From: an uncultured Chloroflexia bacterium | GTDB taxonomy: Bacteria > Chloroflexota > Limnocylindria > Limnocylindrales > CSP1-4 | Assembly (NCBI GenBank): GCA_963813335.1 | Contig: CAWEYL010000001.1 | Location: forward strand, 1-64,000 | Length of the DNA: 64,000 bases | Direction: 5' to 3' | In this document: piece after piece, positions 8,053 through 62,023 of the stretch | Numbering within the stretch: position 1 is the stretch's first letter | Layout of the letters: every line of letters starts with the position of its first letter | Notes under the pieces: generated by a model | Told to the model about the DNA's origin: nothing | The model's input: the letters and a program-made list of their open reading frames with translations, nothing else | Databases searched by the model: none | Made by a program: the position numbers and the translations under genes

Positions 8053-11000
8053 GTGGCCAGCCAGACCAAGCGCGCGCGGAAGCCCGCCCCGACCCCCGAC
8101 GCGACCGCGGACGCGGCTGTCCCGGAGGCGAAGCGCGCCTCGACCAATGGCCACCGCCGCCACGACCCGGATGGCGGCCACGGCGAGATCCACGACCAGC
8201 TGATCGCCGCCGTCGCCGAGACCGCCCGGCTGCTCGAGGCCGACGGCGCGATGGTCTACCTCGTCGATCCGGCCACCGGGCACCTCCGCTTCGCGCACGA
8301 CGCGGGGATCCGCAGCAAGCGCAGCCGCGACTGGGTCCGCTCGATCCGCCTGCCGGTCGGCATGGGGATGTTCGGGCGGGCGGTGGCGTTGCGCGGGGTC
8401 GTCATGACCGACGACTACCTGAACGACGCCGCCTTCGACCACGCGCCCGAAACGGACCGGGTGGTCGAGGACATCGGGATCCGCTCGATGGTCGCCGCCC
8501 CGCTGGTCAACGGCGAAGAGGTGTTCGGGGCGATCGGCGCGTTCAGCAGCCGGAAGGCCGCCTTCAGCTCGTCGAACGTGGCCCTGGTCCGGGCGCTGGC
8601 CGACCACGCCGCCGCCGCGATGGCCAACGCCCGGCTCATCGAGCAGCTGGACCATTCGCGGGCCGAGCTGGCCGCGCGCGCCGACGTGGAGCGCTCGCTC
8701 CGCGAGATCGCCGCCCGCATCAGCGCCGCGTCCGACCTGCCGGCCGTCCTGCAGGGTGCGGTCGACGAGGCGGCGCGCCTGCTCGACGCCCACGGCGCCC
8801 GCATCGACCTGATCGACCCCGGGTCCGGGCTGCTCGCGGGCGCCTACGTCTCGGGCGAGACGCCCCGAAGAGGAGGACTGGCCGCCCGACCCGAACACGA
8901 CCCTCGAAGAAGGGATCTCCGGCCAGGCGGTCGTCCGCGCTCGCGCCGTCTGGACCGGCGACTACCTGCTGGACGACTCGTTCCCGCACGGGTCGGCCGG
9001 CGACGCCTTCGTGCGGCGGACCGGCATCCACTCGGTGATGGCGGCGCCGCTGATCGGCGAGGGCGGCCCGTTCGGGTCGCTGACGATCTTCGCCGAGCGG
9101 ACCGATGCGTGGAGCGAGTCCGACGCCGCGATCCTGGTGGCCATCGCCGACCAGGCGGCCATCACGATCACGACGACCCGGCTCATCGCGGAGCTCGGCG
9201 AGTCGCGCGAGGCGCTCGGCCGCCGGGCCGCCGGAGAGCAGGCGCTCCGCGAGATCGCCGCCCGGATCACGGTGCTGCGCGACACGACGGAGATCCTCGG
9301 CGACGTCGTCGAGCAGGCCGTGCCGCCTCGTCCGCGCCGACGGGGTCATCCTCGACCTGCTCGACCCGTCGACCGGCAACCTCCACTGGGCGCTCGACAG
9401 CGGCGTGCGCGAGCAGTTCACCGACGAGGAGCGGGCGCAGCTCTGGATCTCGGTCGGCGTCGGGGCGACCGGCAAGGCCGTCGCCGAGGACCGCGTCGTG
9501 CTCGCCCGCGGCGACCTCGCGGCGCAGTTCCCGCCGTCGCCCCTGTCGACCGAGTTCTACGTGCGGACCGGCTTCCAGTCGATGATCGCCGCGCCGATCA
9601 CCGGCGAGGCGGGCCCGCTCGGTGTCATCGAGGTCTACTCGAAGCGGCCCGACGCGTTCACCGCGACGGATGCCGGCCTGATCGGCGCGCTCGCCAGCCA
9701 GGCGGCGATCGCGATCACCAATGCGCGGCTGATCGACGAGCTCGGCCGCTCCCGGGTCCAGCTCGCCGAGACCGCCGAGGCCGAGCGGACCCTGCGCGAG
9801 ATCGCCGGTCGCGTGAGCGCCATGCGCGACCAGGGCGAGATCCTCCAGTCGGTCATCGACGCGGCGGCCCGCCTGCTCCAGGCGAGCGGCGTCACGATCG
9901 ACCTGATCGACGGCAAGGGGATGGCCGAAGCCTGGTTGAACCCGCAGGTCGAGGCGCGCACGCACGCCAACGTGGACCTGCTGGCCGACGTCGAGATCGA
10001 CGCGGAGGTGGGCGTCTCCGGGATGGCCATCCGGACGAGGGCGACGGCCTGGACGGGCGACTACCTGACCGACCAGCGCTTCGCGCACACCGCGGACCGC
10101 GACGCCTTCGTCCGCGCATCCGGGATCCACTCGGTGCTGGCCGCACCACTCATCCATCGCGACGATGTCTTCGGGGTCGTCAACGCCTACGCCGACCGGG
10201 CCGACGCCTTCGACGAGACCGACGCGGGACTGCTGGCCGCCCTGGCGGACCAGGCCGCCATCGCCATCGCCAACGTGCGGCTCATCGAGGAGCTGCAGCG
10301 CTCGCGCTCGGAGATCGCCCGGCGGGCCGATTCGGAGCGGACACTGCGCGAGATCGCGGCCCGCGTGTCGGCCATCCTCGAGCCGGACGAGGTCCTCCAG
10401 CAGATCACCGAGGAGGCCGCCCGCCTCCTCGAATCGGACGGCGCCCGCATCGACCAGTACGACCCGGAGATGGACACACTGCGCTGGTCGTACGCGGCCG
10501 GCGATGCGATGTCGAAGATGCCGGACTGGGCCAAGCGCGGCGGCCTCAAGCCGGGCCAGGCGGTCGCCGGCACGGCCTTCGCCGAGCAGCGCGCGGTCCT
10601 CACCACCGACTACCTGGCCGACGAGCGCTTCGACCACACGAAGGCGATCGACTCGTTCATCAAGCGGATGCGCATCCGCGCGGTGATGTCGACGCCGCTG
10701 ATGGGCGAGGACGGGCCGATCGGCACGATCTCGGTCGTCTCGCGCAGCGCCGGCCACTACGACGAGGCGGACCTCGAGGTGCTGACCGCGCTCGCGACGC
10801 AGGCGTCGGTCGCGATCCGCAACGCCCGGCTGATGGAGCAGCTCGCCACGTCGCGGGCGGTCATCGAGCGGCGCGCCGAGGCGGAGCACGCCCTGCGCGA
10901 GATCGCCGCCCGGATCACCGCGATCCGCGAGCCGGGCGACCTGCTCCAGCACGTCGTCGACGAGGCACAGCGCCTGCTGCGCGGCGACGGCGCGATGATC

Positions 11001-13771
11001 GACCAGTTCGACCCGGAGACCCAGACGCTCGAATGGGCCTACGACGCCGGCATCCCGGTGGCCCAGCGCGAAGCGGTCAAGCTCGACCTCGCTGCACCTC
11101 GGGGAGGGAGCGGCCGGGAAGGCGGTGGCCGAGCGGCGCGTGATGCGCGTCGGCGACTACCTCGCGGCCGAGGACTTCGTCCACGACGACCTCGCGGATT
11201 CGCTCGCGAGCGGCGCCGGGCTGCGCGACTTCATCGCGGCGCCGATCATCGGCGATGCGGGCCCCTTCGGCGCGATCGAGGTCTTCAGCCGCCAGCCGAA
11301 CGTGTTCGACGACATCGACGAGGCGGTCCTCGGCGGGCTGGCCGACCAGGCCGCCATCGCGATCACCAACGCGCGGCTGATCGAGGAGCTGGAGAAGTCC
11401 CGCAAGGCGGTGGCCCGCCGCGCCGACACGGAGCGGTCGCTGCGCGACATCACCGCGCGCATCGCCGCCCTGCGCGAGCCGGACGTCATCCTGGACCGCG
11501 TCGTCGAGGAGGCGGCCCGCCTGCTGGGGACCGACGGCGCGCACCTGACCCGGATGTCGGACGACGGGACGTACCTCGTCCCGGTGGTGGTCGCCGGCGG
11601 CGCGGACTTCGCCACCCAGGCGTGGCTGCTCGGGATGCGCTTCCCGCTGGGCGGCGGCATCAACGGCCTGGCGGCCCAGTCGCGCGAGCCCGTCTCCACC
11701 TTCGACTACCTCGTCGACCCGCGCATCCCCCACGACCCCGACGACACCGAGGTCGCCGACCGGCTCGCGCTGCGGGGCATGGCGGCCGCACCGCTGCGCG
11801 CCCCGGGCGGCGAGGTGATCGGCACGCTCGCCGTCTCGTCCGCCCAGCCGCGCGCGTTCCAGCCCGAGGAGCTGGACCTGCTCCAGGGCCTCGCCGACCA
11901 GGCGGCCATCGCGATCACCAACTCGAACCTGCTGACCCGCCTGGCCAGCTCGGAGGAGCGCTACCGCTACCTCGTCGAGAACGCCCCGGACCTGGTCTGG
12001 TCGATCGACGGGGAGGGCCGCTTCACGTTCCTCTCCGATGCGGTCGAGCGACTGACCGGGCGCGGCGCCGAGGCGTTCCTCGGCAAGCACTTCGGGGCGC
12101 TGGTCCACGGCACGTCGCGCGACGTCGCCGAGTACGACTTCGCGGCGGGCATGACCAGCGGGGCGCAGGAGCTGCGCGGCCGGGTCAACCTCGAGGGTCC
12201 CGACGGCGAGCCGGTGCCGGCCGAGTTCATCGCCACCGCGCGCCTGGACGAGGACGGCCGGTTCGCCGGCGCCAACGGCTCGGTCCGCGACATGCGCGAG
12301 CGCGACCGCCTCGAGCGCGAGCTGCGCGAATCGGAGGTCCGCTACCGCTTCCTCGTCGAGAACTCGCCGGACGTGGTCTTCGCGACCGATGCCGACGGCC
12401 AGTTCACCTACCTCTCCGAGGCGATCGAGCGGCTCACCGGGTACGCCGCGCCCGAGCTCACCGGGAAGCACTTCTCGGTGATCGTCGACCCGACGACGAT
12501 GGGCGTGGCCGCCGAGCGCTGGGACAAGCTGATCGCCGACCCGACCACCAAGCAGGTGTCCGAGCTGATCCTGCTCGGCAAGGGCGATCGGCAGACGGCC
12601 GTCGAGGTCCACGCCCTCGGCATCGTGGCCGAGGACGGGTCGTTCGCCGGCATCCACGGGTCGACCCGCGACATCTCCGAGCGGGAGCGCCTGCAGCGCG
12701 AGCTGCGCTCGTCCGAGGAGCGCTACCGCTACCTCGTGTCGTCGTCGCCGGACCTCGTGTGGGTGACCGACGCCGCCGGCCAGCTCGTGTTCGTCAGCGA
12801 GGCGGCCGAGGCGATCCTCGGCACGTCGGCGGAGGCCCTGATCGGGCGCCCGTACTGGGACGTCTTCTCGGAGTCGGCACGGCGCGAGGCCGAGGTCCGC
12901 TTCAAGTGGCTCACCCGGCACCCCACCTCGGTCCACCGTTCCCGCCTGCCGTTCCGGCACGCCGACGGCCACGACGTCCTCGTCGAGATCAACGGGATCG
13001 GCATGGTCGAGGACGGCCGCTTCGTCGGGGCGCATGGCGCGGCGCGCGACGTCTCCGAGCGCGACCGGCTCGAGCGCGGGCTCCGCCAGCAGGCCGGCGA
13101 GCTCGCCGCCGGCGAGGAGCGCGCCCATCTCGCCCGCGAGCTGCACGACTCGGTCACCCAGGCGCTCTTCTCGATGACCCTGGTGTCGCGCTCGGTCGAG
13201 ATGCTCCTGGACCGCGATCCCGATGCGGCCCGGACGCAGCTGACCCAGCTCCGCGAGCTCCAGCGCGAGGCGCTCGCCGAGATGCGCGCGCTGATCTTCG
13301 AGCTGCGCCCCGGCAACCTCGAGCAGGACGGCCTGGTCCGCGCGCATCAAGACCCACACGGCGTCGCTGCAGGGCCGGATCGGGCTGCCGGTCGTCGTCG
13401 AGAGCACGCTCGAGGAGCGGCTGCCGCTGCCCGTCGAGGAGACGCTCTACCGGATCGCCCAGGAGGCGCTCCACAACGTGGTCAAGCACGCCGGGGCGCA
13501 CGAGGTCCGCCTCGAGATCCGGCGGACACCGACGGCGGTGCGGCTGCGCGTCAGCGACGACGGCAAGGGCTTCGACCCGGCCCGCGTCCCGGACGGCCAT
13601 CTCGGCCTCGCCGGCATGCAGGCGCGAGCCGCGCGCATCGGCGCGACGTTCAGCTGCCAGAGCGAGATCGGCAAGGGAACGACCATCGAGGTCGTGGTGG
13701 AGGACCCGGCGAACGCGGTCCAGGACGCGCGCCTCGGGGAGATGCCGAGCGGGTCCATCCGCGACCGATGA
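8053..13771 (+). CDS. giant soluble sensor histidine kinase, 7 GAF + 3 PAS + HisKA_3 + HATPase (frameshifts near 8865, 9320, 11085, 13345)
   Basis: Repeated LREIAARI...LADQAAIAITNARLIEEL units; RYRYLVEN.PD PAS starts; EERAHLARELHDSVTQ H-box; DDGKGFD and GHLGLAGM G-boxes. Confidence 0.88.
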
Positions 13772-32350: not shown

Positions 32351-33463
32351 ATGACTTCGATGCCGAAATCGATGGACGCGGCCGGCGCGGCCGCGCGCGC
32401 GAAGACCAAGACGAAGGCTGACGCCGCCGCGCGAGATGCGAGGAAGCGTGCCAGCCGCCAGACCGGCCATCCGGTCCGCCGCTACATGTTCCGGGGCTTG
32501 ATCGCCGTCGAGGTCATCGCCCTGGCCGGCCTCGCGGGCTACGGGATCCTGACGAATGTCTCCGTCAGCGGGGGCATCGCGGCCATCTTCGCCACGCCGC
32601 CGCCCACCCCGAAGGCGACCCCGACACCGGCGGTCACCCTGCCAGCGACCGGCTTCGTGCCGACCGGCCCGACCACCGAGGCGAGCGTCGTGCGCGTCGT
32701 CGACGGCGACACGATCGTGGTCAAGGTCGACGGCGTGGACCTGTACGTGCGCTACATCGGGATGGACGCCCCCGAGGCGGTCAAGCTCGACACCCCGGTC
32801 CAGTTCATGGCCCCCGAGGCGACCCAGGCCAACGCCCAGCTGGTGAGCGGCCAGACGGTCATCCTCGAGCGCGACGTGTCCGAGGCCGACGGTTCGGCGC
32901 GCCTCCTGCGCCACGTCTGGGTCGACCGCGACGGGACCCTCTTCCTGGTCGGGCTCGAGCTGGTCAAGGCCGGCTTCGCGCAGGCCACCCCGCTGCCGCC
33001 CGACACGAAGTACGCGGCCCGCTACGCCGAAGCCGAGGCCGCGGCCAAGGCGGCCGGTCTCGGCATCTGGGGCGCCCCGCCCAGCCCGGGGACCGAGGCG
33101 ACCCTGCCGCCGACCGGCCCGACGCCGTCGCTCGGGCAGTTCCTCAGCCTGCAGCCCGTCACCGTGACCTCGGAGCCCCAGCCGTTCCGCGGCGGGATCG
33201 GGATCTACGACTGGTCCGCGGTCACGTTCGAGGGCCCCAAGGCGGTCGTCCGCTCGGAGGTCACCTCGTCCTCGCGCGATGGATGCCAGCTCGAATGGTC
33301 GCTGGCCGCCCTGGGCGGGGAGCCCGCGACCGGCGGGGCCCAGCTCGACGGCCGGGCCACCAAGAAGGCCCAGGCCACCATCACGGCCCCGACCTCGACC
33401 GCCAGCTTGCGGGTCACCAGCACCTGTTCCGACTGGCTGATCACGATGCGCGAGGCCGGCTGA
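32351..33463 (+). CDS. membrane-anchored thermonuclease (SNase) 1
   Basis: TM helix; VVDGDT, VRYIGMDAPE, LELVKAGFA, GIWG; Cys-containing C-terminal domain. Confidence 0.88.
   Translation: MTSMPKSMDAAGAAARAKTKTKADAAARDARKRASRQTGHPVRRYMFRGLIAVEVIALAGLAGYGILTNVSVSGGIAAIFATPPPTPKATPTPAVTLPATGFVPTGPTTEASVVRVVDGDTIVVKVDGVDLYVRYIGMDAPEAVKLDTPVQFMAPEATQANAQLVSGQTVILERDVSEADGSARLLRHVWVDRDGTLFLVGLELVKAGFAQATPLPPDTKYAARYAEAEAAAKAAGLGIWGAPPSPGTEATLPPTGPTPSLGQFLSLQPVTVTSEPQPFRGGIGIYDWSAVTFEGPKAVVRSEVTSSSRDGCQLEWSLAALGGEPATGGAQLDGRATKKAQATITAPTSTASLRVTSTCSDWLITMREAG
32642..33115 (+). repeat. 474-bp direct repeat copy 1 (SNase domain)
   Basis: Identical by eye to 34218-34691 (offset 1576); off-frame translations also identical. 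Confidence 0.92.
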
Positions 33464-33638: not shown

Positions 33639-35042
33639 ATGCTCCAAGAGTTCTGCCCTGATTGCGGGACGCGCAGGGTCGCCCTGTTCCGGTGGTGCCG
33701 GACGTGCGGGCTCGACTACGACGAGCTCGATGCACGCGGCGACCTGCCAGGCAGCCCGTACGCGACCGTCGGGGCTGCGGGCGCCGGGTCTCGTCCCGCC
33801 GCGGCGGTCGCCCCGCCCAGGGCCGAGCGAGCCGCGCCGCGCATCACGTCGGTGACGATCCCGGCCGCGATCGCGCGCCTGGCGACGCTGCCCGGCCGCG
33901 AGCCGTCCGCCGGCCGGGGCCTCTCGGTGGCGACACCTCCCGACCTGTCGTCCGGGGCGCCCGAGCCCGCGCCGGACGGCGCCGTCACCCAGCCGGTCTT
34001 CGGCGGGATGTCGATCCTCCGCCGACGCTCGACCCGGCGGCCCATCAGCCGCTCCCTGGCATTCGGCGTCGCGGCGCTGCTGGCGGTCGGGCTCCTGGGC
34101 GGCGCCTATGCCGCCGACCTCGGCGGGGTGCAGACCGCGGTCGCGACCTTCGCCGGCGAGCCGGGCGCTGTCGCACCGGCGGCGGCCGCCGCCCCGAACG
34201 CGGATCCCACGCCGACCCCAGCGACCGGCTTCGTGCCGACCGGCCCGACCACCGAGGCGAGCGTCGTGCGCGTCGTCGACGGCGACACGATCGTGGTCAA
34301 GGTCGACGGCGTGGACCTGTACGTGCGCTACATCGGGATGGACGCCCCCGAGGCGGTCAAGCTCGACACCCCGGTCCAGTTCATGGCCCCCGAGGCGACC
34401 CAGGCCAACGCCCAGCTGGTGAGCGGCCAGACGGTCATCCTCGAGCGCGACGTGTCCGAGGCCGACGGTTCGGCGCGCCTCCTGCGCCACGTCTGGGTCG
34501 ACCGCGACGGGACCCTCTTCCTGGTCGGGCTCGAGCTGGTCAAGGCCGGCTTCGCGCAGGCCACCCCGCTGCCGCCCGACACGAAGTACGCGGCCCGCTA
34601 CGCCGAAGCCGAGGCCGCGGCCAAGGCGGCCGGTCTCGGCATCTGGGGCGCCCCGCCCAGCCCGGGGACCGAGGCGACCCTGCCGCCGACCCCAGCGCCC
34701 GCCCCGCTGCGGCTCACCACCAACGACCCGGTCACGTTCACGAACGGCGTCCGGTCGGACTTCCACGGGGCCGAGGGCAGCTACACCTGGCGCGCCGTGA
34801 ACCTGACCGTCCCGACGGTCAAGGTGGCCTGGACCGTCGACGGGGCGCCCGGCGCGAGCTGCTCCGTCGAGTGGGCCCTGACGCCCGCCACCGCGGCGCC
34901 GGTCGCCGGTCAGGTGGACGTCGCCCGCAAGGGCCACAAGACCGGCAAGTCGAACCACGAGACGCCGTTCCGGCGGGCGATGCTGACCGTGGCCAGCACC
35001 TGTCCGATGTGGCGGCTGTCGGTCACGGGCGAGGGCAGCTAG
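33639..35042 (+). CDS. zinc-ribbon + TM + thermonuclease (SNase) 2
   Basis: CPDC..CRTC N-terminus, TM helix, SNase motifs, C-terminal domain. Confidence 0.88.
   Translation: MLQEFCPDCGTRRVALFRWCRTCGLDYDELDARGDLPGSPYATVGAAGAGSRPAAAVAPPRAERAAPRITSVTIPAAIARLATLPGREPSAGRGLSVATPPDLSSGAPEPAPDGAVTQPVFGGMSILRRRSTRRPISRSLAFGVAALLAVGLLGGAYAADLGGVQTAVATFAGEPGAVAPAAAAAPNADPTPTPATGFVPTGPTTEASVVRVVDGDTIVVKVDGVDLYVRYIGMDAPEAVKLDTPVQFMAPEATQANAQLVSGQTVILERDVSEADGSARLLRHVWVDRDGTLFLVGLELVKAGFAQATPLPPDTKYAARYAEAEAAAKAAGLGIWGAPPSPGTEATLPPTPAPAPLRLTTNDPVTFTNGVRSDFHGAEGSYTWRAVNLTVPTVKVAWTVDGAPGASCSVEWALTPATAAPVAGQVDVARKGHKTGKSNHETPFRRAMLTVASTCPMWRLSVTGEGS
34218..34691 (+). repeat. 474-bp direct repeat copy 2
   Basis: Identical to 32642-33115. 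Confidence 0.92.
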
Positions 35043-35081: not shown

Positions 35082-36278
35082 ATGTCGGATCCGCACTGCC
35101 CGCGGTGCCAGGCGCCGTCCTTCGAGGACACCCGCTACTGCTGGTCCTGCGGCTTCGACCTCGGCGACCCCGAGACCCGGGTGAACGCAGCGGCGATGGC
35201 GCCGCCCGCGACCGACCCCGCGGCCGCCGACCCCGCGGCCACCGCTGCTGCCACTGCCGACACCAGCGGCGCAGCGCCGGGCCGATCCGGGCAGGGGCGG
35301 CTGCTCCGCTACGGCGCGGCCGCACTGGTCGCCGTGGTCGCCATCGGGGTCGTCGCGAATCTGCCCGGCCTGACCGGTCCCGCCACGAGCCCGGCTCCGT
35401 CGGGTGCCGCCGGCGCATCCGCCTCGACCGCGGCCGCGGCCTCACCCGAACCGTGGGCCTCGCTCGCCCCGACGGGCCGCACCACCGCGGCGACCGTGAC
35501 GCGGATCGTCGACGGCGACACGATCGTCGTCGACATCGACGGGACCGAGCAGCGGGTCCGCTACATCGGGATGGACACCCCCGAGACCGTGAAGCCCGAC
35601 ACGCCGGTCCAGCCGATGGGCGAGGAGGCGGCCGCGGCGAACGCCGCCCTCGTCGACGGCCAGGCGGTCGTCCTGGAGCAGGACGTCTCGGACACCGACC
35701 GGTTCGGGCGCCTGCTGCGCGATGTCTGGGTGCGCCGCGACGGCGTCCTCGTCCTGGCCGGGCTGGAGCTGGTCCGCCAGGGCTACGCCCAGATCAGCAC
35801 GTTCCCGCCGGACGTCCGCTACGCCACCATGCTGCTGGCGGCCCAGCGGGAAGCGCAGCGGGACGGGGTGGGACTGTGGGCGTCGGCGGGCGCCGGCGGG
35901 AGCGCGTCGCCGTCGCCGGCCGCGGCGCCCGGTCCCACCCTGCCGACCTTCACCAGCGTGACGCCCGTGATCGTCACGTCCGGGCACAAGTCGAGCTTCC
36001 GCGGGGCGATCGGCATCTACGCGTGGCGCGACGTCCGCTTCGAGGACCCGGCCGTCCGCATGACGTGGGACGTCCATTCGAACCTGGCGTCGGGGTGCCG
36101 CATCGACTGGCGGATCCAGCCGCTGGACGGGCCGGCGGTCCAGGGCTCGGTGAAGGTGAAGGGAAAGGGCCGGACCACCGGGAAGCGCAACCTGGCCGTG
36201 CCGGCGGGGGATGCGCCGCTGGAGGTGCGGAGCACCTGCTCCGAATGGCTGCTCACGATGCAGGGGAAGGGCGCCTAG
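35082..36278 (+). CDS. zinc-ribbon + TM + thermonuclease (SNase) 3
   Basis: CPRC..CWSC; IVDGDT, VRYIGMDTPE, DRFGRLL. Confidence 0.9.
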   Translation: MSDPHCPRCQAPSFEDTRYCWSCGFDLGDPETRVNAAAMAPPATDPAAADPAATAAATADTSGAAPGRSGQGRLLRYGAAALVAVVAIGVVANLPGLTGPATSPAPSGAAGASASTAAAASPEPWASLAPTGRTTAATVTRIVDGDTIVVDIDGTEQRVRYIGMDTPETVKPDTPVQPMGEEAAAANAALVDGQAVVLEQDVSDTDRFGRLLRDVWVRRDGVLVLAGLELVRQGYAQISTFPPDVRYATMLLAAQREAQRDGVGLWASAGAGGSASPSPAAAPGPTLPTFTSVTPVIVTSGHKSSFRGAIGIYAWRDVRFEDPAVRMTWDVHSNLASGCRIDWRIQPLDGPAVQGSVKVKGKGRTTGKRNLAVPAGDAPLEVRSTCSEWLLTMQGKGA

Positions 36279-50913: not shown

Positions 50914-54084
<3,171 letters not shown>

Positions 54085-54248
54085 CTCTGCCTCTCCTCCA
54101 GTTCGCCAGTTGCCGCTGTTCGCGGCAGCTGCCGCGTTCTCCGTGTCGTCGTGCTTGCCGATCATCCTGGGGGCCGCTCACGGACCGGCGGTCTGGGCCG
54201 GCGAGGAGCGTGTCGTGGGCGACGCGGTGAGATCAGGCGACCCCTCGA

Positions 54249-54277
54249 ACGTTACGCCTGTCGCGAGGGTGAGTCAA
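54249..54277 (-). promoter_or_regulatory. sigma70-type promoter for nrdJ (TTGACT-N17-TAACGT)
   Basis: -35/-10 hexamers with 17-bp spacing on the minus strand. Confidence 0.6.
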
Positions 54278-54285
54278 GCCCGAAA

Positions 54286-54334
54286 ACACAAGATGTAGTG
54301 GTACGTTCGGGTGGCCCGCCGCTACATGTGGTGG
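54286..54334. promoter_or_regulatory. tandem NrdR boxes (54286-54301 and 54319-54334)
   Basis: ACACAAGATGTAGTGG and CCGCTACATGTGGTGG match acaCwAtATaTwGtg; 33 bp apart; upstream of the RNR gene. Confidence 0.85.
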
Positions 54335-54350
54335 TTTCCGCGTTTCGTGC

Positions 54351-54478
54351 TCGTCCACGCTCAGCCCACGTTCGGGGCGTGGTTGTCCACGTTCCGGGGG
54401 GTGTCGTGCACCGGCTCGTGCGGGGTTGTGCACGCGGTCGTCCACCGGTTCGCGGCGGTTGTCCACGGGTCGTGCACA
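54351..54478 (+). repeat. cluster of seven co-oriented TYGTSCAC (DnaA-box-like) motifs
   Basis: Motif starts at 54351, 54383, 54404, 54426, 54438, 54459, 54470. Confidence 0.6.
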
Positions 54479-54600
54479 GTGTCGCATACCGCACAAGTGT
54501 TCGGTTCTGGGGCGTCGAGGGAGGGCTGTGGCGCTGGTCCGCCGCGACCTGCGCAGCCCGCGGCGCCTGGCGCTTCCCGGCACTCCCCGGCCCCCGCCGA

Positions 54601-54785
54601 ACCTGGCACAACGACCATGGGCAGAACGTTATGGCCGATCCAGGCCCGGACCCGCCGGCTTCGAGGCCGGACCGCCAGTCCCGCGAGCACGGGGCGGACC
54701 GGTTCGGTCGCCGTCCAGGTCCGATTCCGGCGCTCCGGACCCTTCGACCTGCCATAACGTTCTGTGGATGAGCGTCATGCCGGGT
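54601..54785. mobile_element. REPIN/MITE-like inverted doublet 1 (39-bp arms)
   Basis: Arms 54601-54639 and 54747-54785 (inverted), same family as doublets 2 and 3. Confidence 0.7.
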
Positions 54786-54872
54786 CGGGCGCCCGACGGG
54801 ACCACGCCGAGACGCCCCCGCGACGACCACGACCTAGCCTGACGTCCCGCTCGATACAGGAGGCACGGTCCG

Positions 54873-55322
54873 ATGGAGACGATCGCCGAACCCGACCACG
54901 ACGACGAGGCACGTCGCGCCGCGACGATGAAACGGCTCGACTTCCTCATCGACTGGTATCGCCGCCACGCCGAGCAGGAGCGGCTGGTGTACCGGGTGCT
55001 CAAGGTCCTGTCGATCGGGACGGCCGCGGCCGTCTCGGTGTCGGCGGCCGCTTCGAACCCGCAGGTGGTCACCGCCACACTCGGGGCGCTCATCGTCGTG
55101 TTCGAGACCATCCAGTCGGTCTTCCACCTGCACGCCGACTCGGTGTCATACGCGCAGACCAAGGAGCTGCTGATCCGCGAGAAGGCGCTGTATGACGCGA
55201 GGGCCGGGGGGTATGCCCGTTCGTCGAACCCCGATCGGTACCTGGCCGAGCAGGTCGAGCGGATCGCGGCGGCCGAGCTCTCGTCCTGGGTCGACAAGCA
55301 GACCGACGAGAAGGCCGCGTGA
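54873..55322 (+). CDS. DUF4231 / SLATT two-TM effector-family protein
   Basis: IDWY...2 TM helices...Y..TKE.L.REKALY...Y...LAEQVE.I...E...W; GGAGG RBS. Confidence 0.8.
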   Translation: METIAEPDHDDEARRAATMKRLDFLIDWYRRHAEQERLVYRVLKVLSIGTAAAVSVSAAASNPQVVTATLGALIVVFETIQSVFHLHADSVSYAQTKELLIREKALYDARAGGYARSSNPDRYLAEQVERIAAAELSSWVDKQTDEKAA

Positions 55323-55436
55323 CCCGCGGTCGACCGAGCGGCGATCGGCGGGTGGCCGGGCGGTGATCCGCGGTTAACCGAGCGGTGAGTGGCAGGTGGC
55401 TGGCCGATACGTGCCGCCAGTCACGATCTCGGTGTC

Positions 55437-56213
55437 GTGGATGATCAGCGGATCGGGTCGGCCATCCGGTCGGTCCGGCTCAAGCGGCGATGGCGCCAGG
55501 CGGACCTTGCGACGGCGGCGGACGTGTCGCGCTCGACGGTCTCGCGGATCGAGCGCGGCCATCTCGACCAGCTGTCGCTCGAGACCCTCCGCACGGTGGC
55601 GCGCGCCCTCGATGTCCGGGTCGATTTCGTCGTTCGATGGCGCGCCGGAGACCTCGACCGACTGCTGAATGCCCGGCACTCGAAGCTGCACGAGTCCGTC
55701 GCCCGGATGTTCCGAGACGACCTGCCGGCCTGGGCACTCCGGCCCGAGACCTCGTTCGCCATCTTCGCGGAGCGCGGCGTCATCGACATCCTTGCGTGGC
55801 ATGCCGGTCGCCGCGCCCTGCTCGTGATCGAGCTCAAGACGGACATCGTCGACGTCAACGAGCTGGTCGGAACGGTCGACCGGAAGCGGCGCCTCGCGGC
55901 ACAGGTCGCGGCGGAGTTCGGCTGGGAGGCGCAGACGGTGTCGGTCTGGGTGATCGTGGCCGACGGCCGGACCAATCGAGCCCGGATCGCGGTCCACAAC
56001 GCCATGCTGCGCGCGGCGTTCCCGACCGATGGACGGTCGATGCGGTCGTGGTTGCGGGACCCGGCCGAAGCGGTCGCAGCCATGTCGACATGGCACGACG
56101 ACCATGGGGAGAACGCAATGGCCGATGCGACACCGGTCAGGCGCGTCCGACGGCCCAAGCCGAAGGCGGTCGGTGTGCGATCACGCACGAAACGGAACGA
56201 CACGATGGCCTGA
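55437..56213 (+). CDS. XRE-family HTH fused to a PD-(D/E)xK nuclease domain
   Basis: IRSVRLKRRWRQADLATAADVSRSTVSRIERG; E-x-S-F...G.IDILAW...LLVIELKT. Confidence 0.85.
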   Translation: MDDQRIGSAIRSVRLKRRWRQADLATAADVSRSTVSRIERGHLDQLSLETLRTVARALDVRVDFVVRWRAGDLDRLLNARHSKLHESVARMFRDDLPAWALRPETSFAIFAERGVIDILAWHAGRRALLVIELKTDIVDVNELVGTVDRKRRLAAQVAAEFGWEAQTVSVWVIVADGRTNRARIAVHNAMLRAAFPTDGRSMRSWLRDPAEAVAAMSTWHDDHGENAMADATPVRRVRRPKPKAVGVRSRTKRNDTMA

Positions 56214-56284
56214 GTGGCCGTCCCGGGGGTGGTTCCGGGCCAGCGATCGGCCATTACGTTCTGTGGATGAGCGTTGTGCCGGGT
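56088..56284. mobile_element. REPIN/MITE-like inverted doublet 2, overlapping the nuclease 3' end
   Basis: Arms 56088-56126 (inside the CDS) and 56246-56284. Confidence 0.7.
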
Positions 56285-56309
56285 CGGCGTCGGCCTGGGC
56301 CGCCGGACC

Positions 56310-57264
56310 CTATCCCGGACCTGGCGCCGCCATCACGCGAGCCAGCACGTCGCTGAACCGGGCCGTCGCCACGCCGATCGACGTGTCCGCGGCCCCGTAG
56401 TAGAGGTGCAGCTGGTCGGCCGGCTCGTCGAGGACCCAGCCGCACGGGAAGACGACCTTGCCGACGTCGCCGATGACCTCGTGCGGCGCCGTCGGGCCGA
56501 ACACCCACTCGTCCATCCGCCGCAGGAGCACGCGGGGATCGGCGAGGTCCAGCAGGGCCAGGCCGACGCGGTAGATCGGGCCGTCGCCGGTCAGGTGCAC
56601 GCCGTGGTACATCAGCAGCCAGCCCTCTTCGGTCTCGAGCGGTGGCGGGCCGAGGCCGATCTTGTTGGCATCCCACCACGCCCCGTCACGCGCCTCGAGG
56701 AGCAGCGCGTGGTCCCCCCAGTGCCGCAGGTCCGGCGACCACGAGAGCCACATGTGGGCGTTGCCGTGCAGCGGCGAGGGCCGATGGATCATCGCCCAGC
56801 GCCCGTCGAAGCGGACCGGGAACAGGGCGGCGTCCTTGTCCTCGGGCGGCATCGCCGGACCCAGGCGCCGCACGCTCCGGAAGTCGCGCGTCACCGCCAG
56901 CGAGACCAGCGGACCGCGGCGGCTGTACGCGGTGTAGGCGATCGCCCACTCCTCGCGCTCGGGGAGCCACGTCAGCCGCGGGTCCTCGCAGCCCCAGATC
57001 TCCTCGGGGTGGTTCGCGGCGTCGGAGCGGAGCAGGGGCTCGGGGTCGAACGTCCAGCCAGTCGATCCCGTCGGCGCTGCGCACGACGTGGAGCTGCGAG
57101 ATGCCGCGCATGTCTTCGACGCGGACGAGCAGGACCGTCTCGTCGCCGACCCGCGCCGCCCCCGGGTTGAAGACCGAGTTCGCTGGGTAGGGGACATCGG
57201 CGACGGTCAGGATCGGATTCGAATCGGACCGGCGGAACAGCATCGCGTCGTCGAGGTGCGTCAC
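56310..57264 (-). CDS. GH130-family glycosidase/phosphorylase (frameshift near 57060)
   Basis: NPIL, VFNPGA, GCEDPR, KDAALFP, KIGLGPPP, YHGV, VVFPCG, YYGAAD. Confidence 0.88.
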
Positions 57265-58532
57265 CGGGTGGATGTTGGCAGACGTGGACCCATCCCGTGG
57301 CTGCGGGCCATCGATGCCGCGGATCGCTGGCGCATCGAGCCGACCACCGTCGTCGTTCGCGGCGCCGGCCAGTCGGTGTCGGGCGGCTCACCGGGTCCGG
57401 CGACGACCGGACGGGTCACGCCGGCGGCGCTCGCGGCCGCACTGGCCCGCGCCCACCGGATGTGCTCGAGCGCGACCAGCCACATCAGCGTCGATTCGGC
57501 GCCCTGGTTCTGGTTGACCCGGTCGTGTTCGAGGCCATCGAACCCGGCGCCGCGCTGCGGATCCACGACCGGGAGCCCGACATCGTTGTGGCCGAGGAAC
57601 CAGGCGTAGCAGTGTTCCATGGCGGCAACGTAGCGCTCGTCGCCCGACTCGTCGAGCGCAGCTTCGGCCGCGAGCAGGAGGGCGGTCGCCTCGATCGGCT
57701 GCTGGTCGAACCTCGACCGCTCGCCGTCGCGCGGCCACCAGCCGTTGCCGACCGGCGAGAAGTCGTCGTCGCCGCCGGTCTGGATCTCGATGAGCCAGTC
57801 GAGCGCGCGCCGGCCGGTCTCGATCATCGGCGTCGAGCCGAGCCATCGGCCGGCCACGATGAGCGCCCGTGGCGGCAGGCCGTTCTCGTAGGTGAGGATG
57901 GGTTCGGGCCACGGCCAGGCATCGTCGGTGGCGCCCGTGATGAACCTCGAATGGAGTCGGCGCGCCAGCATCCGGTAGGCGCGGTCGGTCAGGTCCGTCG
58001 GGTCCACCCGGATCGCGGCGTCGCAGCCCAGCAGGACTGATGCCTGCGCGCGGATCGCGGTGACGCGGACGGCTTCGGGCAGGGCGTCGCTGAAGAGGGA
58101 GGCAGCGAGCGCGACCATCCGGCCGTCCGGCGCTGTCGCGACGACCGTGCCGAGGGCGAGCATCGCCCGGCCCTGGCTGTCCTCGGAGGGGATGCCGTCG
58201 ACCCACGAGCCGTCGGCGCGCCGGAAGTTGCGGAACGTCCCGGCCGACGGGTCGAAGGCGTCGCGCAGGAACCGGACGTTCTGCCAGGCCCGCTCCGAGA
58301 CCTCGGCCCAGCCGAGCGTCCGGCCGTGGAGCAGGTCGACCTCGAGGGCGCGGGCGACGTCGTCGGTGCAGGAGCCGTGCGCCGGGTCCGGCGCCGAGAA
58401 CGTCGCGTGCTGCGCGATCCCGAACGGGCCGGTCAGCGCATCGAGGTGCTCGCGGCTGACCGGGTAGAGCGGCACGAGTCCGGGGACCGGCGCCGGCGCC
58501 GGCGCCGCCCGCCCGGACCCGGCCTCAGGCAT
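57261..58532 (-). CDS. glycosyltransferase-associated six-hairpin glycosidase-like protein
   Basis: QHA...CTDDVARAL; EDSQGRA; FDQQPIEA; WFLGHN; NQNQGAESTL. Confidence 0.82.
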   Translation of the reverse strand: MPEAGSGRAAPAPAPVPGLVPLYPVSREHLDALTGPFGIAQHATFSAPDPAHGSCTDDVARALEVDLLHGRTLGWAEVSERAWQNVRFLRDAFDPSAGTFRNFRRADGSWVDGIPSEDSQGRAMLALGTVVATAPDGRMVALAASLFSDALPEAVRVTAIRAQASVLLGCDAAIRVDPTDLTDRAYRMLARRLHSRFITGATDDAWPWPEPILTYENGLPPRALIVAGRWLGSTPMIETGRRALDWLIEIQTGGDDDFSPVGNGWWPRDGERSRFDQQPIEATALLLAAEAALDESGDERYVAAMEHCYAWFLGHNDVGLPVVDPQRGAGFDGLEHDRVNQNQGAESTLMWLVALEHIRWARASAAASAAGVTRPVVAGPGEPPDTDWPAPRTTTVVGSMRQRSAASMARSHGMGPRLPTSTR

Positions 58533-59691
58533 TGATGGTCGCGAGCTGCCCGGATCGGGTGACGACCGAGGCCGGCGCGACGACCCGCTCGAAGAGGCGT
58601 CGATACTCGGCGCCGACCTCCGACCAGACCATGTTCCGGCTGTAGGCATAGGCGCGGCGGCCGAGGGCGTCGCGGAGCTCACTGTCGTCCAGCACGCGGT
58701 TCAGCGCCGCCGCGAACTTGGCCGGCGAGCCGGGCGCGACGAGGATGCCGCGGCCGTCGGCCAGCAGCTCGGCCGCATATGCGTACGGGGTCGAGACGAT
58801 CGCCCGGCCCGCGCTCATCGCGTACGACAGCGTGCCCGAGACGATCTGGTCGAGGTTCGGGTAGGGGGTGACGAAGACGTCGGCGGCTTCGAGCCAGCGC
58901 GTCAGTTCGACGTGCCCGACGAACTTGTCGATGAAGCGGACGTGGTCGGCCATCTTGAGGTCCTTGACCCGGGCCACCAGCGCCTCGCGGTACGCCTCGC
59001 CCTCGCGCGCCAGCAGGTCGGGATGAGTCGCGCCGACGATGACGTAGACGGCGTTCGGGTGGGCGGCCACGACCTCGGGCATCGCGTCGATGGCGAGCTC
59101 GTAGCCCTTGCCCTGGCCGAGCAGGCCGAAGCTCAGGATGACGTCGCGCCCGACCAGGCCGACGGCGGCCTTGATCGATTCGGACGGGACCAGCGGCAGC
59201 TCCGGGACGCCATGCGGGATGATGTCGACCCGACTCGGGTCGACCCCGTAGGCGGTCTCGAGGAGCGTCGCGGCGGACCGCGACATGACGACGGTCGCCG
59301 TCGCCGCAGAGGTCAGCTCGATGAGGATCTCGCGCTGGCGACGGGTCGGCTTGCGCAGCACCGTATGGAGCGTCGCGACCGCGGGCATGTCGAGCTCGTG
59401 GATGAAGCCGAGGACCGACTCGCCGTCATCGCCGCCCCAGATCCCGTACTCGTGCTGGATCGACACGACGTCGACGCAGCGCGAGAGCGAGCGGGCCGTC
59501 GAGATGTAGTCGGCGGGCTCGTCGCGGCGGATGCGGTGATGGACTTCCATCGGGTAGGGGACGCCGCGCTCCGGCGAGACGAGCGCGACGACCTCGCGGC
59601 CGCTCGAGGCGCGTGACAGGGCATGCGTGAAGGTCGCGATGCCGCAGTGGCGCGGCGGATACGTGGAAACGAAGGCAGTTCGAACGATGAT
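58525..59691 (-). CDS. GT4 family glycosyltransferase (probable ATC start)
   Basis: STYPPRHCGIATF, IQHEYGIWGG, FGLLGQGKG.E, TPY.NLDQIVSGTL; frame open to 59691 with GAGAGGA RBS. Confidence 0.88.
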   Translation of the reverse strand: MIVRTAFVSTYPPRHCGIATFTHALSRASSGREVVALVSPERGVPYPMEVHHRIRRDEPADYISTARSLSRCVDVVSIQHEYGIWGGDDGESVLGFIHELDMPAVATLHTVLRKPTRRQREILIELTSAATATVVMSRSAATLLETAYGVDPSRVDIIPHGVPELPLVPSESIKAAVGLVGRDVILSFGLLGQGKGYELAIDAMPEVVAAHPNAVYVIVGATHPDLLAREGEAYREALVARVKDLKMADHVRFIDKFVGHVELTRWLEAADVFVTPYPNLDQIVSGTLSYAMSAGRAIVSTPYAYAAELLADGRGILVAPGSPAKFAAALNRVLDDSELRDALGRRAYAYSRNMVWSEVGAEYRRLFERVVAPASVVTRSGQLATINA

Positions 59692-59808
59692 GGGAGTCCT
59701 CTCGATCGATCGGCGCGGCTCGGACCGGGGTCGGTCGGGCGCGCCGGATATGAGCCGGAGCCGGGGGTGGGTGAGCGGCTCACCCGTGAGTGGGCCGCTC
59801 AGGTCCGG

Positions 59809-60012
59809 TCAGGCGGGGCGCACCTGGGTGGCGCGGGGACCCTTGGGGCTCTGCTCGATCTCGAAGGTGACGTGCTCGCCACCGACGATCCGATCGAAGT
59901 CCATGCCGGCGTCGAGGGCGCCGCGATGGAAGAAGTACTCCTTCTCATCCTCGGCAGCGATGAAGCCGAAGCCGCGATCGGCGATGACTCGTTTGATGGT
60001 TCCGGTGGTCAT
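59809..60012 (-). CDS. cold-shock protein (CSD)
   Basis: GTIKR..ADRGFGFI, YFFH, KGPRA; GGAGG RBS. Confidence 0.93.
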   Translation of the reverse strand: MTTGTIKRVIADRGFGFIAAEDEKEYFFHRGALDAGMDFDRIVGGEHVTFEIEQSPKGPRATQVRPA

Positions 60013-60183
60013 GTGGACCTCCAACACTTCCCGAACAGGGATGGCAGATCGCACGGTCCGTTCGAAAAGGGGATCGACCACGCGGAGCATCGCCACGCAG
60101 TGCGGCGAGGTCCCCACCGTAGCACAGATGTTCGAGGCTGCCTCGTGAAACGGGCCGGGAGGGTCGCGGCGGGGGCGTCGTCG

Positions 60184-60325
60184 CGGACCCGCGGCGGGGG
60201 TCGCGGACCCGCGGTGGGCGGTCAGGCGCCGGACCCGGCGGTAGGCGCCGGACCCGCGGTGGGCGGTAGGCGCCGGACCCGCGGTGGGCGGTAGGCGCCG
60301 GACCCGGCGGCAGGCGCCGGACCCG
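60184..60325 (+). repeat. GC-rich tandem repeat of 19-26-bp units beginning GGACCCG
   Basis: GGACCCGCGGTGGGCGGTAGGCGCC and shorter variants, abutting doublet 3. Confidence 0.75.
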
Positions 60326-60515
60326 GCACGACGCTCATGGACAGAACGTTATGGCCGGTCTCGCGCGGCCGTCTCGGTCCGCCGCCGATCCGGCTCGACC
60401 CGCTGAGCACGGATCGAGCGTGAGCGGCCGTCGCTGAACCGCGGATCGACTGTGTCGGTCGCTCCGACGGCTCCCGACCGGCCATTACGTTCCCTGGGCG
60501 AGCGTTGTGACAGGT
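60321..60515. mobile_element. REPIN/MITE-like inverted doublet 3
   Basis: Arms 60321-60359 and 60477-60515. Confidence 0.7.
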
Positions 60516-60647
60516 CGGGCCGGGGACGGGTGTCGCGCCAGGGACGGGTGTCGCGCCGCGGGGATCGACCGACTGACGCACGCGGCGCCGCCCTCGGCAT
60601 CCCAGGCACTGCCCGCCGCGGCCGCCTCCGAACTGCCACCCGCGCGA

Positions 60648-60728
60648 ACTTTGTACGGGGTATTTACAAAGTGGCGACGGCTCGCTAGCATCCGGGCCGA
60701 CAGGCTTTGCCAACTCTCTGGACAAAGT
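60648..60728 (+). promoter_or_regulatory. two ROK/XylR-type operators overlapping or flanking a sigma70 promoter
   Basis: ACTTTGTA-N9-TACAAAGT (60648-60672) and GCTTTGCC-N9-GACAAAGT (60704-60728); TTTACA-N17-TAGCAT. Confidence 0.75.
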
Positions 60729-60850
60729 GCGGGAGGGGGCGGACCGGCGACGGGACCCGGCGACGGGACCCGGCCACGGGACCCGCGGCCACGGGACCCG
60801 CGGCACGGACGAGGTCGGCGAGCCACCGTCGGAGGAGGACAGCACGGCGC

Positions 60851-62023
60851 ATGCCACGCATCGAGTACTCCCTCAAGGCGACCCACGCGCAGACCCGTGC
60901 CCACAACGCCAGCCTGGTCCTGCGCGCGCTCTACGACCTCGGCCCGATCTCCCGCGCCGAGATCGCCCGCCTCACGGGCCTCACGAGAACCAGCGTCGGC
61001 GAGCTGGTCGCGGACCTCGAGGCGGAAGGGCTCGCCCGCGAAGTCGGCCGCGGCCCCAGCACCGGCGGCAAGCAGCCGACGCTGGTCGCGCTCGAGAGTG
61101 ACGCCCGGACCGCCATCGTCCTCGACCTCGGCGAGCGCACGTTCTCGGCCGCGCTCGCGAACCTGCGCGGCGAGCTCACCCACCGGCACACCCGCGACCT
61201 CGAGGGGCGCGACGGCGATGCCGCGCTCGCGCTCGTCCACGAGCTGATCGAGGAGGTCTCCCGCGAGGCGACCAGCCCGATCCTCGGCATCGGCGTCGGG
61301 ACCCCGGGCATCGTCGACGCCGGCGGCACGATCCGCTGGGCGGTCAACCTCGAGTGGAAGGACCTGCCGCTCGCCGAGCTGCTCCGCGACCGCTACGGTC
61401 ACCCGACGATCGTCGCCAACGATGCCCGCGCGGCCGCCCTCGCGACGTTCCTGTTCGAGGGCGAGGACCGGCCGGCGAACCTGATCGCGATCAAGGTCGG
61501 GCGCGGCATCGGCAGCGGTCTGGTCCTCGACGGCGACCTCTTCGGCGGCGACGGCGACGGCGCGGGCGAGATCGGCCACATCGTCGTCGAGCCCGACGGC
61601 GCGGCGTGCCACTGCGGCCGCTTCGGCTGCCTCGAGACGGTCGCCTCGGCGCCCGCGATCCTGCGGGCGGCGGTCGCGGCCGGCCTGCCGCCGAGCACCA
61701 CCCTCCCCGAGCTGGCCGCCGCGGCCCGACGCGGCGACGAGCGCGCCCTGGGCGTCACGCGCGCCGCGGGCCGGGCGCTCGGCTCGGCCATCGCCAACCT
61801 CATCGGCATCCTCGACGTCCGCCACATCGTGGTCCACGGGTCGGTGACGGTCCTCGGCGAGCCGTGGCTCGACGCGATCCGCGACGAGGCCACGCGCCGC
61901 AGCCTCGGCCCGCTCGCGCGGGAGACCCGCATCGTCGACGGCGGGACGGGCGAGGACCTGACGCTCGTCGGCGCCTGCGCGCTGCTGCTGACCAGCGAAC
62001 TCGGCCTGACGGTCCAGCGATGA
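60851..62023 (+). CDS. ROK family transcriptional repressor (XylR/NagC-like)
   Basis: ISRAEIARLTGLT HTH; GEIGH; CHCGRFGCLE. Confidence 0.93.
   Translation: MPRIEYSLKATHAQTRAHNASLVLRALYDLGPISRAEIARLTGLTRTSVGELVADLEAEGLAREVGRGPSTGGKQPTLVALESDARTAIVLDLGERTFSAALANLRGELTHRHTRDLEGRDGDAALALVHELIEEVSREATSPILGIGVGTPGIVDAGGTIRWAVNLEWKDLPLAELLRDRYGHPTIVANDARAAALATFLFEGEDRPANLIAIKVGRGIGSGLVLDGDLFGGDGDGAGEIGHIVVEPDGAACHCGRFGCLETVASAPAILRAAVAAGLPPSTTLPELAAAARRGDERALGVTRAAGRALGSAIANLIGILDVRHIVVHGSVTVLGEPWLDAIRDEATRRSLGPLARETRIVDGGTGEDLTLVGACALLLTSELGLTVQR

Follow-up and report, generated by a model that had tools for sequence, protein, structure and literature searches.

The stretch of DNA analyzed here (the window) covers the first 64 kb of contig C1 in genome G000, an assembly from an uncultured Chloroflexia bacterium of the order Limnocylindrales (GenBank GCA_963813335.1; 2.54 Mb in 7 contigs, 72% G+C, estimated completeness 81%). 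Toward the right end of the window lies a gene encoding a protein with an XRE-type helix-turn-helix (HTH) domain and a PD-(D/E)xK nuclease-like domain, in the company of three pairs of inverted 39-bp repeats. We call each pair a doublet, consisting of two inward-facing arms and the spacer between them. As described below, these doublets belong to a family that is dispersed in the genome, related nuclease genes are accompanied by doublet families of their own, and the arms are probably the sites that the protein recognizes. The features that carry the argument are the following.

54599..54787, no strand assigned: doublet 1 (type 1), with arms at 54601-54639 (+) and 54747-54785 (-).
55389..56213, plus strand: XRE-HTH + PD-(D/E)xK gene, assigned from Pfam HTH_3, the model fold and an invariant D...ExK.
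56086..56286, no strand assigned: doublet 2 (type 1), with arms at 56088-56126 (+) and 56246-56284 (-).
60319..60517, no strand assigned: doublet 3 (type 1), with arms at 60321-60359 (+) and 60477-60515 (-).

The initial annotation had reported six arms here, with gaps of 107, 119 and 117 bp between the paired 39-mers, and no copies elsewhere in the window. All of this stands. The six arms are present at these positions, beyond chance: five of them are matched by a degenerate 32-nt pattern at up to 3 mismatches (none in 100 shuffles), the arm at 60477-60515 was recovered with an arm profile (E 3.4e-10), and that profile matches all six window arms (E 1e-9 to 1e-12). Neither the pattern nor the profile finds a further copy in the 64 kb. 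Doublet 1 lies between nrdJ (minus strand, start 54165) and a SLATT gene and has a degenerate central core, CGAGCACG, at 54684-54691. Doublet 2 carries the exact core CACGCACG at 56182-56189; its left arm is inside the 3' end of the nuclease open reading frame (ORF), and its right arm stops 23 bp from the stop codon of a GH130 gene. Doublet 3, with a central region at 60403-60422 (GAGCACGGATC / CGAGCGTG), lies between csp and ROK and is the positional counterpart of the ROK-side doublet in relatives. The left arm and spacer of doublet 2 supply the coding sequence of the nuclease ORF from about residue 233 onward. This overlap of gene end and arm is ancestral, since a matching C-terminal tail (..ALS[MFT]W...P.RRVR) is present in the orthologs.

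The N-terminal domain of the protein matches Pfam PF01381 (HTH_3; E 2.5e-13), with a VIA Z of 11.3 to C.AhdI. No Pfam or NCBIfam family was found on the C-terminal half. An AlphaFold model made from a 26-sequence alignment (predicted local distance difference test score, pLDDT, 84.8) matches PD-(D/E)xK nucleases over residues ~96-240, the closest being NucS 2vld (VIA Z 9.3; 104 residues aligned, root-mean-square deviation [rmsd] 3.2) and the XisH-like 2okf (VIA Z 9.3; 112 aligned, rmsd 3.1), followed by Can2, Card1 and AF1548 (VIA Z 8.4-9.1). Foldseek matches were SduA 8ps5 (E 5.7e-5), BstEII and the R2 endonuclease domain. Moreover, D133, E148 and K150 are invariant in the 26 sequences, which include a distant paralog of ~40% identity. 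By its modeled fold and its D...(D/E)xK motif, the C-terminal domain belongs to the PD-(D/E)xK superfamily, and nuclease activity is predicted. Judging from the N termini of orthologs, the true start of the gene is probably the GTG at 55437. The recognition helix of the HTH varies among orthologs. At least 2758 related proteins are present in a large protein collection, where their only annotation is as XRE regulators.

The three window doublets are part of a larger family. Applied to the whole assembly, the arm profile returned 37 arms at E<0.05, which form 18 doublets and one single arm (C1:800548-800591); in 18 of 18 type-1 doublets the arms face inward. The doublets sit on four of the seven contigs (C1, C3, C4 and C7), and the family is thus spread through the genome instead of being restricted to the nuclease locus. 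The earlier statement that all copies lie near the nuclease gene must accordingly be withdrawn: 13 of the 18 are more than 30 kb away or on other contigs. Nor are they evenly scattered, the distribution that the initial annotation had named as contrary to a link with the gene; instead, copies are enriched around it. At most 700 bp separate the gene from two of the doublets (P 1.2e-4 for at least 2 of 18), and five of the nine C1 copies are within 30 kb of it (P 2.7e-5), an enrichment that persists when the two flanking copies are set aside (3 of 7 within 30 kb; P 3.4e-3). The doublets are extragenic, in that none is in a confidently called gene save for the overlap with the nuclease ORF tail. 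Their neighbors, by a crude gene call based on G+C at third codon positions (GC3), are about seven convergent, five divergent and six tandem gene pairs.

Each arm is itself a palindrome, built of a 13-nt half-site, a 13-nt variable center that contains a nearly random hexamer, and a second 13-nt half-site. By column counts over 36 arms, positions 3-15 (ACCYGGCAYRACG) mirror positions 29-41 (CGTTATGGCCGRT) at 11 of 13 places. The arms of one doublet are usually of different types: 14 of the 18 doublets combine a CGACCA arm with an arm of another type, and none has two CGACCA arms (P 0.013). A whole doublet measures ~190 bp. Spacers had been described as unrelated in sequence, which is right insofar as they do not align and resemble one another little more than shuffles do (all-against-all mean score 12.9 vs 11.2 in shuffled controls). 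It misses what they share, namely a central core and quantized lengths. The exact core CACGCACG is central in 10 of the 18 doublets, 86 or 97 nt from either element end; in its extended form the core reads CACGCACG(G/A)A. Distances from arm to arm fall at 134, 144-147, 155-157 and 167 bp, with one more at 152, and the type-1 length period is 11.0 bp (Rayleigh R 0.80, reached by none of 5000 random length sets); arm-to-core and arm-to-arm distances both step by 10-11 bp. Together with the core, these strict length classes point to a defined nucleoprotein architecture. A simple promoter and terminator scan inside the doublets found nothing.

A similar arrangement is found in related genomes. The nuclease gene adjoins nrdJ at seven of eight nrdJ loci fetched from relatives, at six of these between nrdJ and ROK; the eighth locus, in G108, lacks it. 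When the best match in each of 30 genomes was considered, nrdJ or ROK was at most 1.5 kb away in 19. At the four loci resolved (G088, G098, G078 and G020), two doublets bracket the nuclease gene. Their arms read TCCGCCAGATG-N10-CGGAGCSTTAGG (TCCGCCAGATG...GGAGCSTTAGG), the core is exactly central, and in both flanking doublets it points the same way as the nuclease gene in all four species. Dispersed doublets in these genomes have the arm type found at the gene, with spacings of 120, 130 and 140 bp and, for the G088-type family, a length period of 10.1 bp (R 0.94, n=12). The orientation of the spacer is also the same in orthologous doublets of the four genomes (forward scores 5.0-49, reverse scores -3.5 to 5.5). 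Upstream of nrdJ, at the position of doublet 1, a diverged or variant doublet is present in these genomes and in G017, where it is diverged. Finally, 31 gene loci were scanned for nearby inverted pairs, and a family-like doublet on the 5' side, at the 3' end or at both was recognized at 23, a count judged by eye from a scan that also yields chance GC-rich pairs; the arm sequence differs from clade to clade.

The surroundings of the gene are less constant. Between doublet 1 and the nuclease gene of the window is a SLATT_1/DUF4231 gene (54873-55322; NCBIfam E 3.6e-21) that matches only at this genome's own locus. It looks like a lineage-specific insertion between doublet and nuclease gene, because no match was found at the relatives' loci compared. 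Between doublets 2 and 3 lies a block (56310-60135) of GH130, a 473-amino-acid ORF of no family, GT4 and csp. The block adjoins the nuclease gene in G017 and is located elsewhere in G020, G078, G088 and G098, where nrdJ, the nuclease gene and ROK are adjacent with no such block between them; a search around the block in G078 and G020 turned up no doublets. One further feature abuts doublet 3:

60180..60327, plus strand: tandem array of about five 25-nt units (CGGACCCGCGGTGGGCGGTAGGCGC).

The array unit consists of the outer end of the left arm of doublet 3 plus flanking sequence (GGCGCCGGACCCG). One public contig (run X1) lacks 60 bp of the array, so its copy number differs between strains. 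On the other side of the locus, the class II ribonucleotide reductase (51288-54165, minus strand) is present as two ORFs that overlap by ~300 nt, an N-terminal part at 53047-54165 and a barrel-plus-TSCPD part at 51288-53351. A frameshift, a miscall or an intein-like insert could account for the split.

Arms that change together with the nuclease paralog had been proposed as a check on the link between repeats and enzyme, and they do change, with species and with paralog. The second paralog of G000 (C3:152716-153402), ~40-43% identical to the window protein, ends at a doublet of another type, type 2, with arms CTGTCAGATGACC.TCAGGCGGTC.TTGGTCAC and a core as in type 1 (CACGCACGGATC). The type-2 family comprises seven doublets in all, the six others on C1 and C3, and for the second paralog to abut a doublet of its own family has a P of 2.4e-3. 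Genome G100 gives the same picture with two further families. There, the paralog at C2:1420511-1421251 abuts a doublet of the CGACCATGAA family, which has 16 arms in that genome (8 doublets, spaced 159 bp; reversed-pattern control 0) and also occurs in G021 and G024, around the copies of the gene in those genomes. The nrdJ-side copy of the gene in G100 is bracketed by two doublets of the CCAGATACTCGCC family, whose pattern has 20 matches (control 2), the 18 at up to 2 mismatches forming 9 pairs. We regard these paralog-specific families as the strongest evidence for a partnership, because shared descent of a locus does not yield them.

The protein is widespread in the genus and dispensable. 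It was detected in 117 of 131 genus genomes, including 24 of 24 high-quality ones, with up to 8 matches per genome and, in a profile search, 12 in G100; in the other 14 of the 131, G090 among them, it was not found. Within a phylum sample of 401 genomes, it occurs only in two families of the class, f1 (22 of 23) and f3 (12 of 16), and was not found in four small f2 genomes or in the other families sampled (~80 in all). In 3 of 10 f3 loci, a threshold-based scan detected a family-like doublet overlying the gene's 3' terminus. Beside nrdJ in G044, the doublet is kept with a 24-residue remnant of the gene. Two orthologous sites in G090 lack a doublet: the intergenic regions there measure 75 and 140 bp, against 336 and 412 bp with a doublet in G000. 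A 28-protein tree places the paralog clades of other loci among the nrdJ-side genes; its backbone is poorly resolved, so gene movements are not countable from it. The inference of the initial annotation that no HUH enzyme is involved is borne out in the genus: Y1_Tnp (PF01797, HUH/RAYT) was found in 0 of the 131 genomes and 0 of the 24 high-quality ones, and the control search found it in 6 of 14 known genomes.

These observations lead us to propose, with a probability of roughly 0.6, that the XRE-HTH/PD-(D/E)xK protein has the doublets as its cognate DNA sites, and that sites and protein constitute a vertically inherited, slowly proliferating repeat-plus-enzyme system. It would resemble the REPINs, doublets of repetitive extragenic palindromes (REPs), and their REP-associated tyrosine transposases (RAYTs). 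The partnership suggested by the initial annotation is thus retained in part. The conserved locus, the match of arms to paralogs, the enrichment near the gene and the lack of an HUH enzyme speak for it; the lack of target-site duplications and of shared spacers, and copies that are not all nearby, do not. Its components differ in strength. That the protein recognizes the arms is, from the sequence associations described, very likely. That the nuclease propagates or homogenizes the doublets is somewhat short of an even bet.

Mechanistically, a protein dimer would bind each arm via two HTH domains, the part that differs between paralogs. Bound in this way, the protein would have its conserved nuclease domains over the variable 13-bp arm center. 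Two bound arms and the core, spaced by whole helical turns, would then join on one face of the helix in a complex with looped or wrapped DNA. New doublets, preferentially nearby, would arise when occasional cleavage leads to copying or gene conversion, and the same process would keep the arms of one family alike. A bolder version, which we offer tentatively, is that a within-genome replicator lifestyle was invented here independently. The nuclease would create, homogenize and be anchored by its own module family, its HTH would shift in specificity from one paralog to the next, and several lineages would coexist and diversify per chromosome over the lifetime of a bacterial class. In that version the modules would be helically phased, with the order palindromic arm, 6-7 turns, core, 6-7 turns and palindromic arm.

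Several results weigh against this proposal. Copy numbers of 7-18 per family are far below those of REPINs. Arms within one doublet are less alike than random arm pairs (68% vs 72% identity; permutation tail 0.996), a low value that arises because unlike arm types are paired, as described above. No clearly related pair exists among the 18 spacers, so no recent copy event is visible and the copies all look old. Target-site duplications, which the initial annotation had suggested looking for, are absent: direct repeats occur at 0-1 of the 18 elements, at any offset and for k=3-9. At the empty sites of G090, gain and loss of the doublet are not separable, since the DNA is too diverged for base-level boundaries. 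Vertical inheritance would by itself suffice to make arm and protein diverge together among orthologs, and the 23 of 31 loci with a doublet were, as noted, counted by eye. Moreover, the nrdJ-side gene of G100 (C2:1395748-1396469; L091) is in three pieces with two frame breaks, next to nine well-kept doublets; this may be an assembly error or a doublet family outliving its enzyme. Lastly, no joints at arms that would mark an excised or inverted form were seen in public contigs from four soil and wetland runs, and contigs from these runs cross doublets 1 and 3 intact and in the same orientation. The contig result is weak evidence, because contigs drop rare variants.

The main rival is an autoregulatory repressor with looped operators. 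More generally, the doublets would be ordinary operators of a repressor or activator with a small regulon, acting by DNA looping, and the nuclease-like domain would serve dimerization or ligand sensing. Several features fit. The DNA-binding domain is an XRE HTH, and the putative regulator would have sites on both sides of its own gene. Several species retain doublets upstream of nrdJ and ROK in corresponding positions, and the paired sites are helically phased as in repressor loops, for which the in vivo helical repeat is ~11 bp. We nevertheless consider this explanation unlikely, as it leaves unexplained the catalytic residues, the doublets between convergent genes and the many specificities. 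The catalytic D...ExK is invariant in all 26 sequences, even in the distant paralog. About seven of the 18 doublets are situated between convergent 3' ends and about six between tandem genes, on the crude GC3-based call. Many specificities coexist, with up to 12 paralog matches per genome, each with its own family. Furthermore, from species to species the arm sequences turn over much more rapidly than regulators and their sites usually do. The gene is also dispensable, being undetected in 14 of 131 genomes and reduced to a remnant in G044.

Another explanation is that the arms are recombination or cut sites and that the ~100-bp cored segment between them flips or leaves. Such a segment would account for lengths that keep helical phase, and three other features suit it: the near-invariant palindromic AACGTT of type-1 arms; the orientation of the core relative to the outer arm halves (CGACCA/CGCTCA), which varies, 5 vs 2, among exact-core doublets with an AC arm; and the fold, which resembles XisH, an excision-controlling factor. 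The AACGTT palindrome is absent from the other families, however, and the spacer orientation is constant across G088, G098, G078 and G020. Contigs of the four runs contain no strand-changing joints. Serine recombinases are absent from G000, and its only tyrosine recombinases, three in number, are not adjacent to any doublet. We therefore judge invertible or excisable segments to be quite improbable.

The doublets could also be transcribed as a structured RNA, a long imperfect hairpin with conserved internal loops and an apical motif. Whole doublets do fold as long imperfect hairpins, owing to the arms. The asymmetry of the arms is strand specific, and would therefore place G.G and A.G mismatches on one strand; the core is co-oriented with the nuclease gene in both flanking doublets of four species. 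The remaining evidence argues the other way. Rfam gave no match at E up to 1 over 54000-61000, and the spacers are not unusually stable, as their folds do not surpass those of shuffled sequences (z -3.0 to +2.0, mostly near 0). No stem flanks the core, where bases pair at only 0-4 positions, and compensatory covariation is absent there and within the arms, in which, by mutual information, only neighboring positions covary. Complementarity between the arms of one doublet is not kept. Length steps of 10-11 bp suit duplex DNA and not a hairpin, and the doublets occur in every orientation relative to neighboring genes. A structured RNA is thus highly improbable.

Least probable of all is a classical miniature inverted-repeat transposable element (MITE) moved by a DDE or HUH transposase encoded elsewhere, which would fit the ~40-bp terminal inverted repeats, the ~190-bp size, the intergenic location and the presence/absence differences between species, but not the missing target-site duplications, the unrelated interiors, the genus counts (Y1 transposase in 0 of 131 genomes, a DDE_Tnp_Tn3 fragment in 1 of 131) or the fact that the only consistent companion gene, the nuclease gene, is outside the doublets and not between terminal repeats. 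A Tn3-type element was rejected on the same two counts, the transposase fragment confined to one genome and the absence of target-site duplications. Integron attC sites were rejected from sequence, with no integrase search made: there is no R-box consensus, and the copies are dispersed.

Other repeats were noticed in this genome. A third family of inverted pairs, built on GATGCACCTCGG(A/C)TGCAT, is found at C1:164665-164793, C3:186425-186595, C4:142331-142521 and C4:151918-152037 of G000, with no nuclease paralog noticed next to it. A 60-90-nt stretch (L011 2386-2449, corresponding to G000 C3:394270-394333), located at the 3' end of the gene to the left of the doublet at C3:394385, has dozens of matches of 76-96% identity in the five relatives searched and may be a repeated coding motif or another repeat. 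Within the window, the 300-nt stretches 32642-32941 and 34218-34517 are 100% identical, and a third copy (35451-35750) is 73% identical. A long coding region at 8200-11950 contains about seven tandem repeats of ~547-549 bp, which look like repeated protein domains.

How does the proposed system, doublets as cognate sites of the HTH-nuclease, compare with known ones? Bertels & Rainey (bioRxiv 10.1101/2021.07.10.451892) describe REPIN-RAYT systems as made up of REP arms that are conserved, a spacer that varies strongly, and one enzyme gene that is inherited vertically and stays in a single extragenic space. The system proposed here shares with them two inverted palindromic repeats around a highly variable spacer, an extragenic location, an enzyme gene that lies between repeats of its own, is kept at one extragenic position and is passed on vertically, different repeat families for different enzyme groups, and slow turnover. 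The agreement is point by point except in the enzyme, the sizes, the copy number, the core and the phasing. The enzyme here is XRE-HTH + PD-(D/E)xK and not HUH/Y1 (0 of 131 genomes). Arms measure 39 bp, compared with ~14 bp for REP palindromes, and the unit ~190 bp, compared with ~100 bp. Copies number 7-18 (18 and 7 doublets per family in the 81%-complete G000, 8 and 9 in G100), whereas REPINs typically number hundreds. A central core, length quantization in 10-11-bp steps and up to about a dozen paralogs per genome set the present system further apart. According to Di Nocera (2013), REPs bear a GTAG or CGTC tag at one end. The arms here end in (C/G)(G/A)ACC..., with no GTAG or CGTC at the conserved ends.

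Other comparisons are with bacterial interspersed mosaic elements and with enzymes that act on paired sites. BIME-1, or RIP, elements of Escherichia coli consist of two inverted REPs around a motif with a site for integration host factor (IHF). The doublets likewise have a palindromic unit, a central motif resembling a protein site and an inverted palindromic unit, and are dispersed intergenically; the core CACGCACG is unlike an IHF site, and the associated enzyme differs. We know of no binding protein for this core. Tn3-derived inverted-repeat miniature elements (TIMEs) are MITEs with ~38-bp terminal repeats. With these and other MITEs the doublets have in common that they are short noncoding units bounded by ~40-bp inverted repeats, but they lack target-site duplications, a shared interior and a parent transposon. 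Type IIE/IIF restriction endonucleases offer the same PD-(D/E)xK chemistry, and, with loop-forming repressors, the use of two sites on one helix face, which the phasing suggests for the doublets as well. What differs is the recognition module, here an XRE HTH, and the nature of the sites, 39-bp palindromes that belong to the host genome itself. We noticed no methyltransferase partner, though no search for one was made.

In the literature on REPINs/RAYT, Limnocylindria repeats and Chloroflexota miniature inverted-repeats, we found no description of a pairing of this gene with doublets; judged by title and abstract opening, none of the Limnocylindria and Chloroflexota papers deals with such repeats, and no paper was found that joins PD-(D/E)xK enzymes with repetitive extragenic palindromes. 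Likewise, among the matches listed for REPIN, RAYT, endonuclease and helix-turn-helix, no title or abstract opening names a non-HUH partner of REPIN-like repeats. The host group comprises uncultured, high-GC Chloroflexota of soil and wetland, which are abundant and little studied. To our knowledge, REPIN-RAYT has so far been the classic example of bacterial chromosomal repeats that live with an enzyme of their own which does not itself jump. If the proposal is true, the locus described here would be a second system that follows the same logic with an unrelated enzyme, a restriction-enzyme-like nuclease fused to a small, fast-evolving HTH, and such a lifestyle would then evolve repeatedly. Its many paralogs, each with a 39-bp palindrome of its own, would also constitute a natural series of matched proteins and sites for following how DNA specificity changes.

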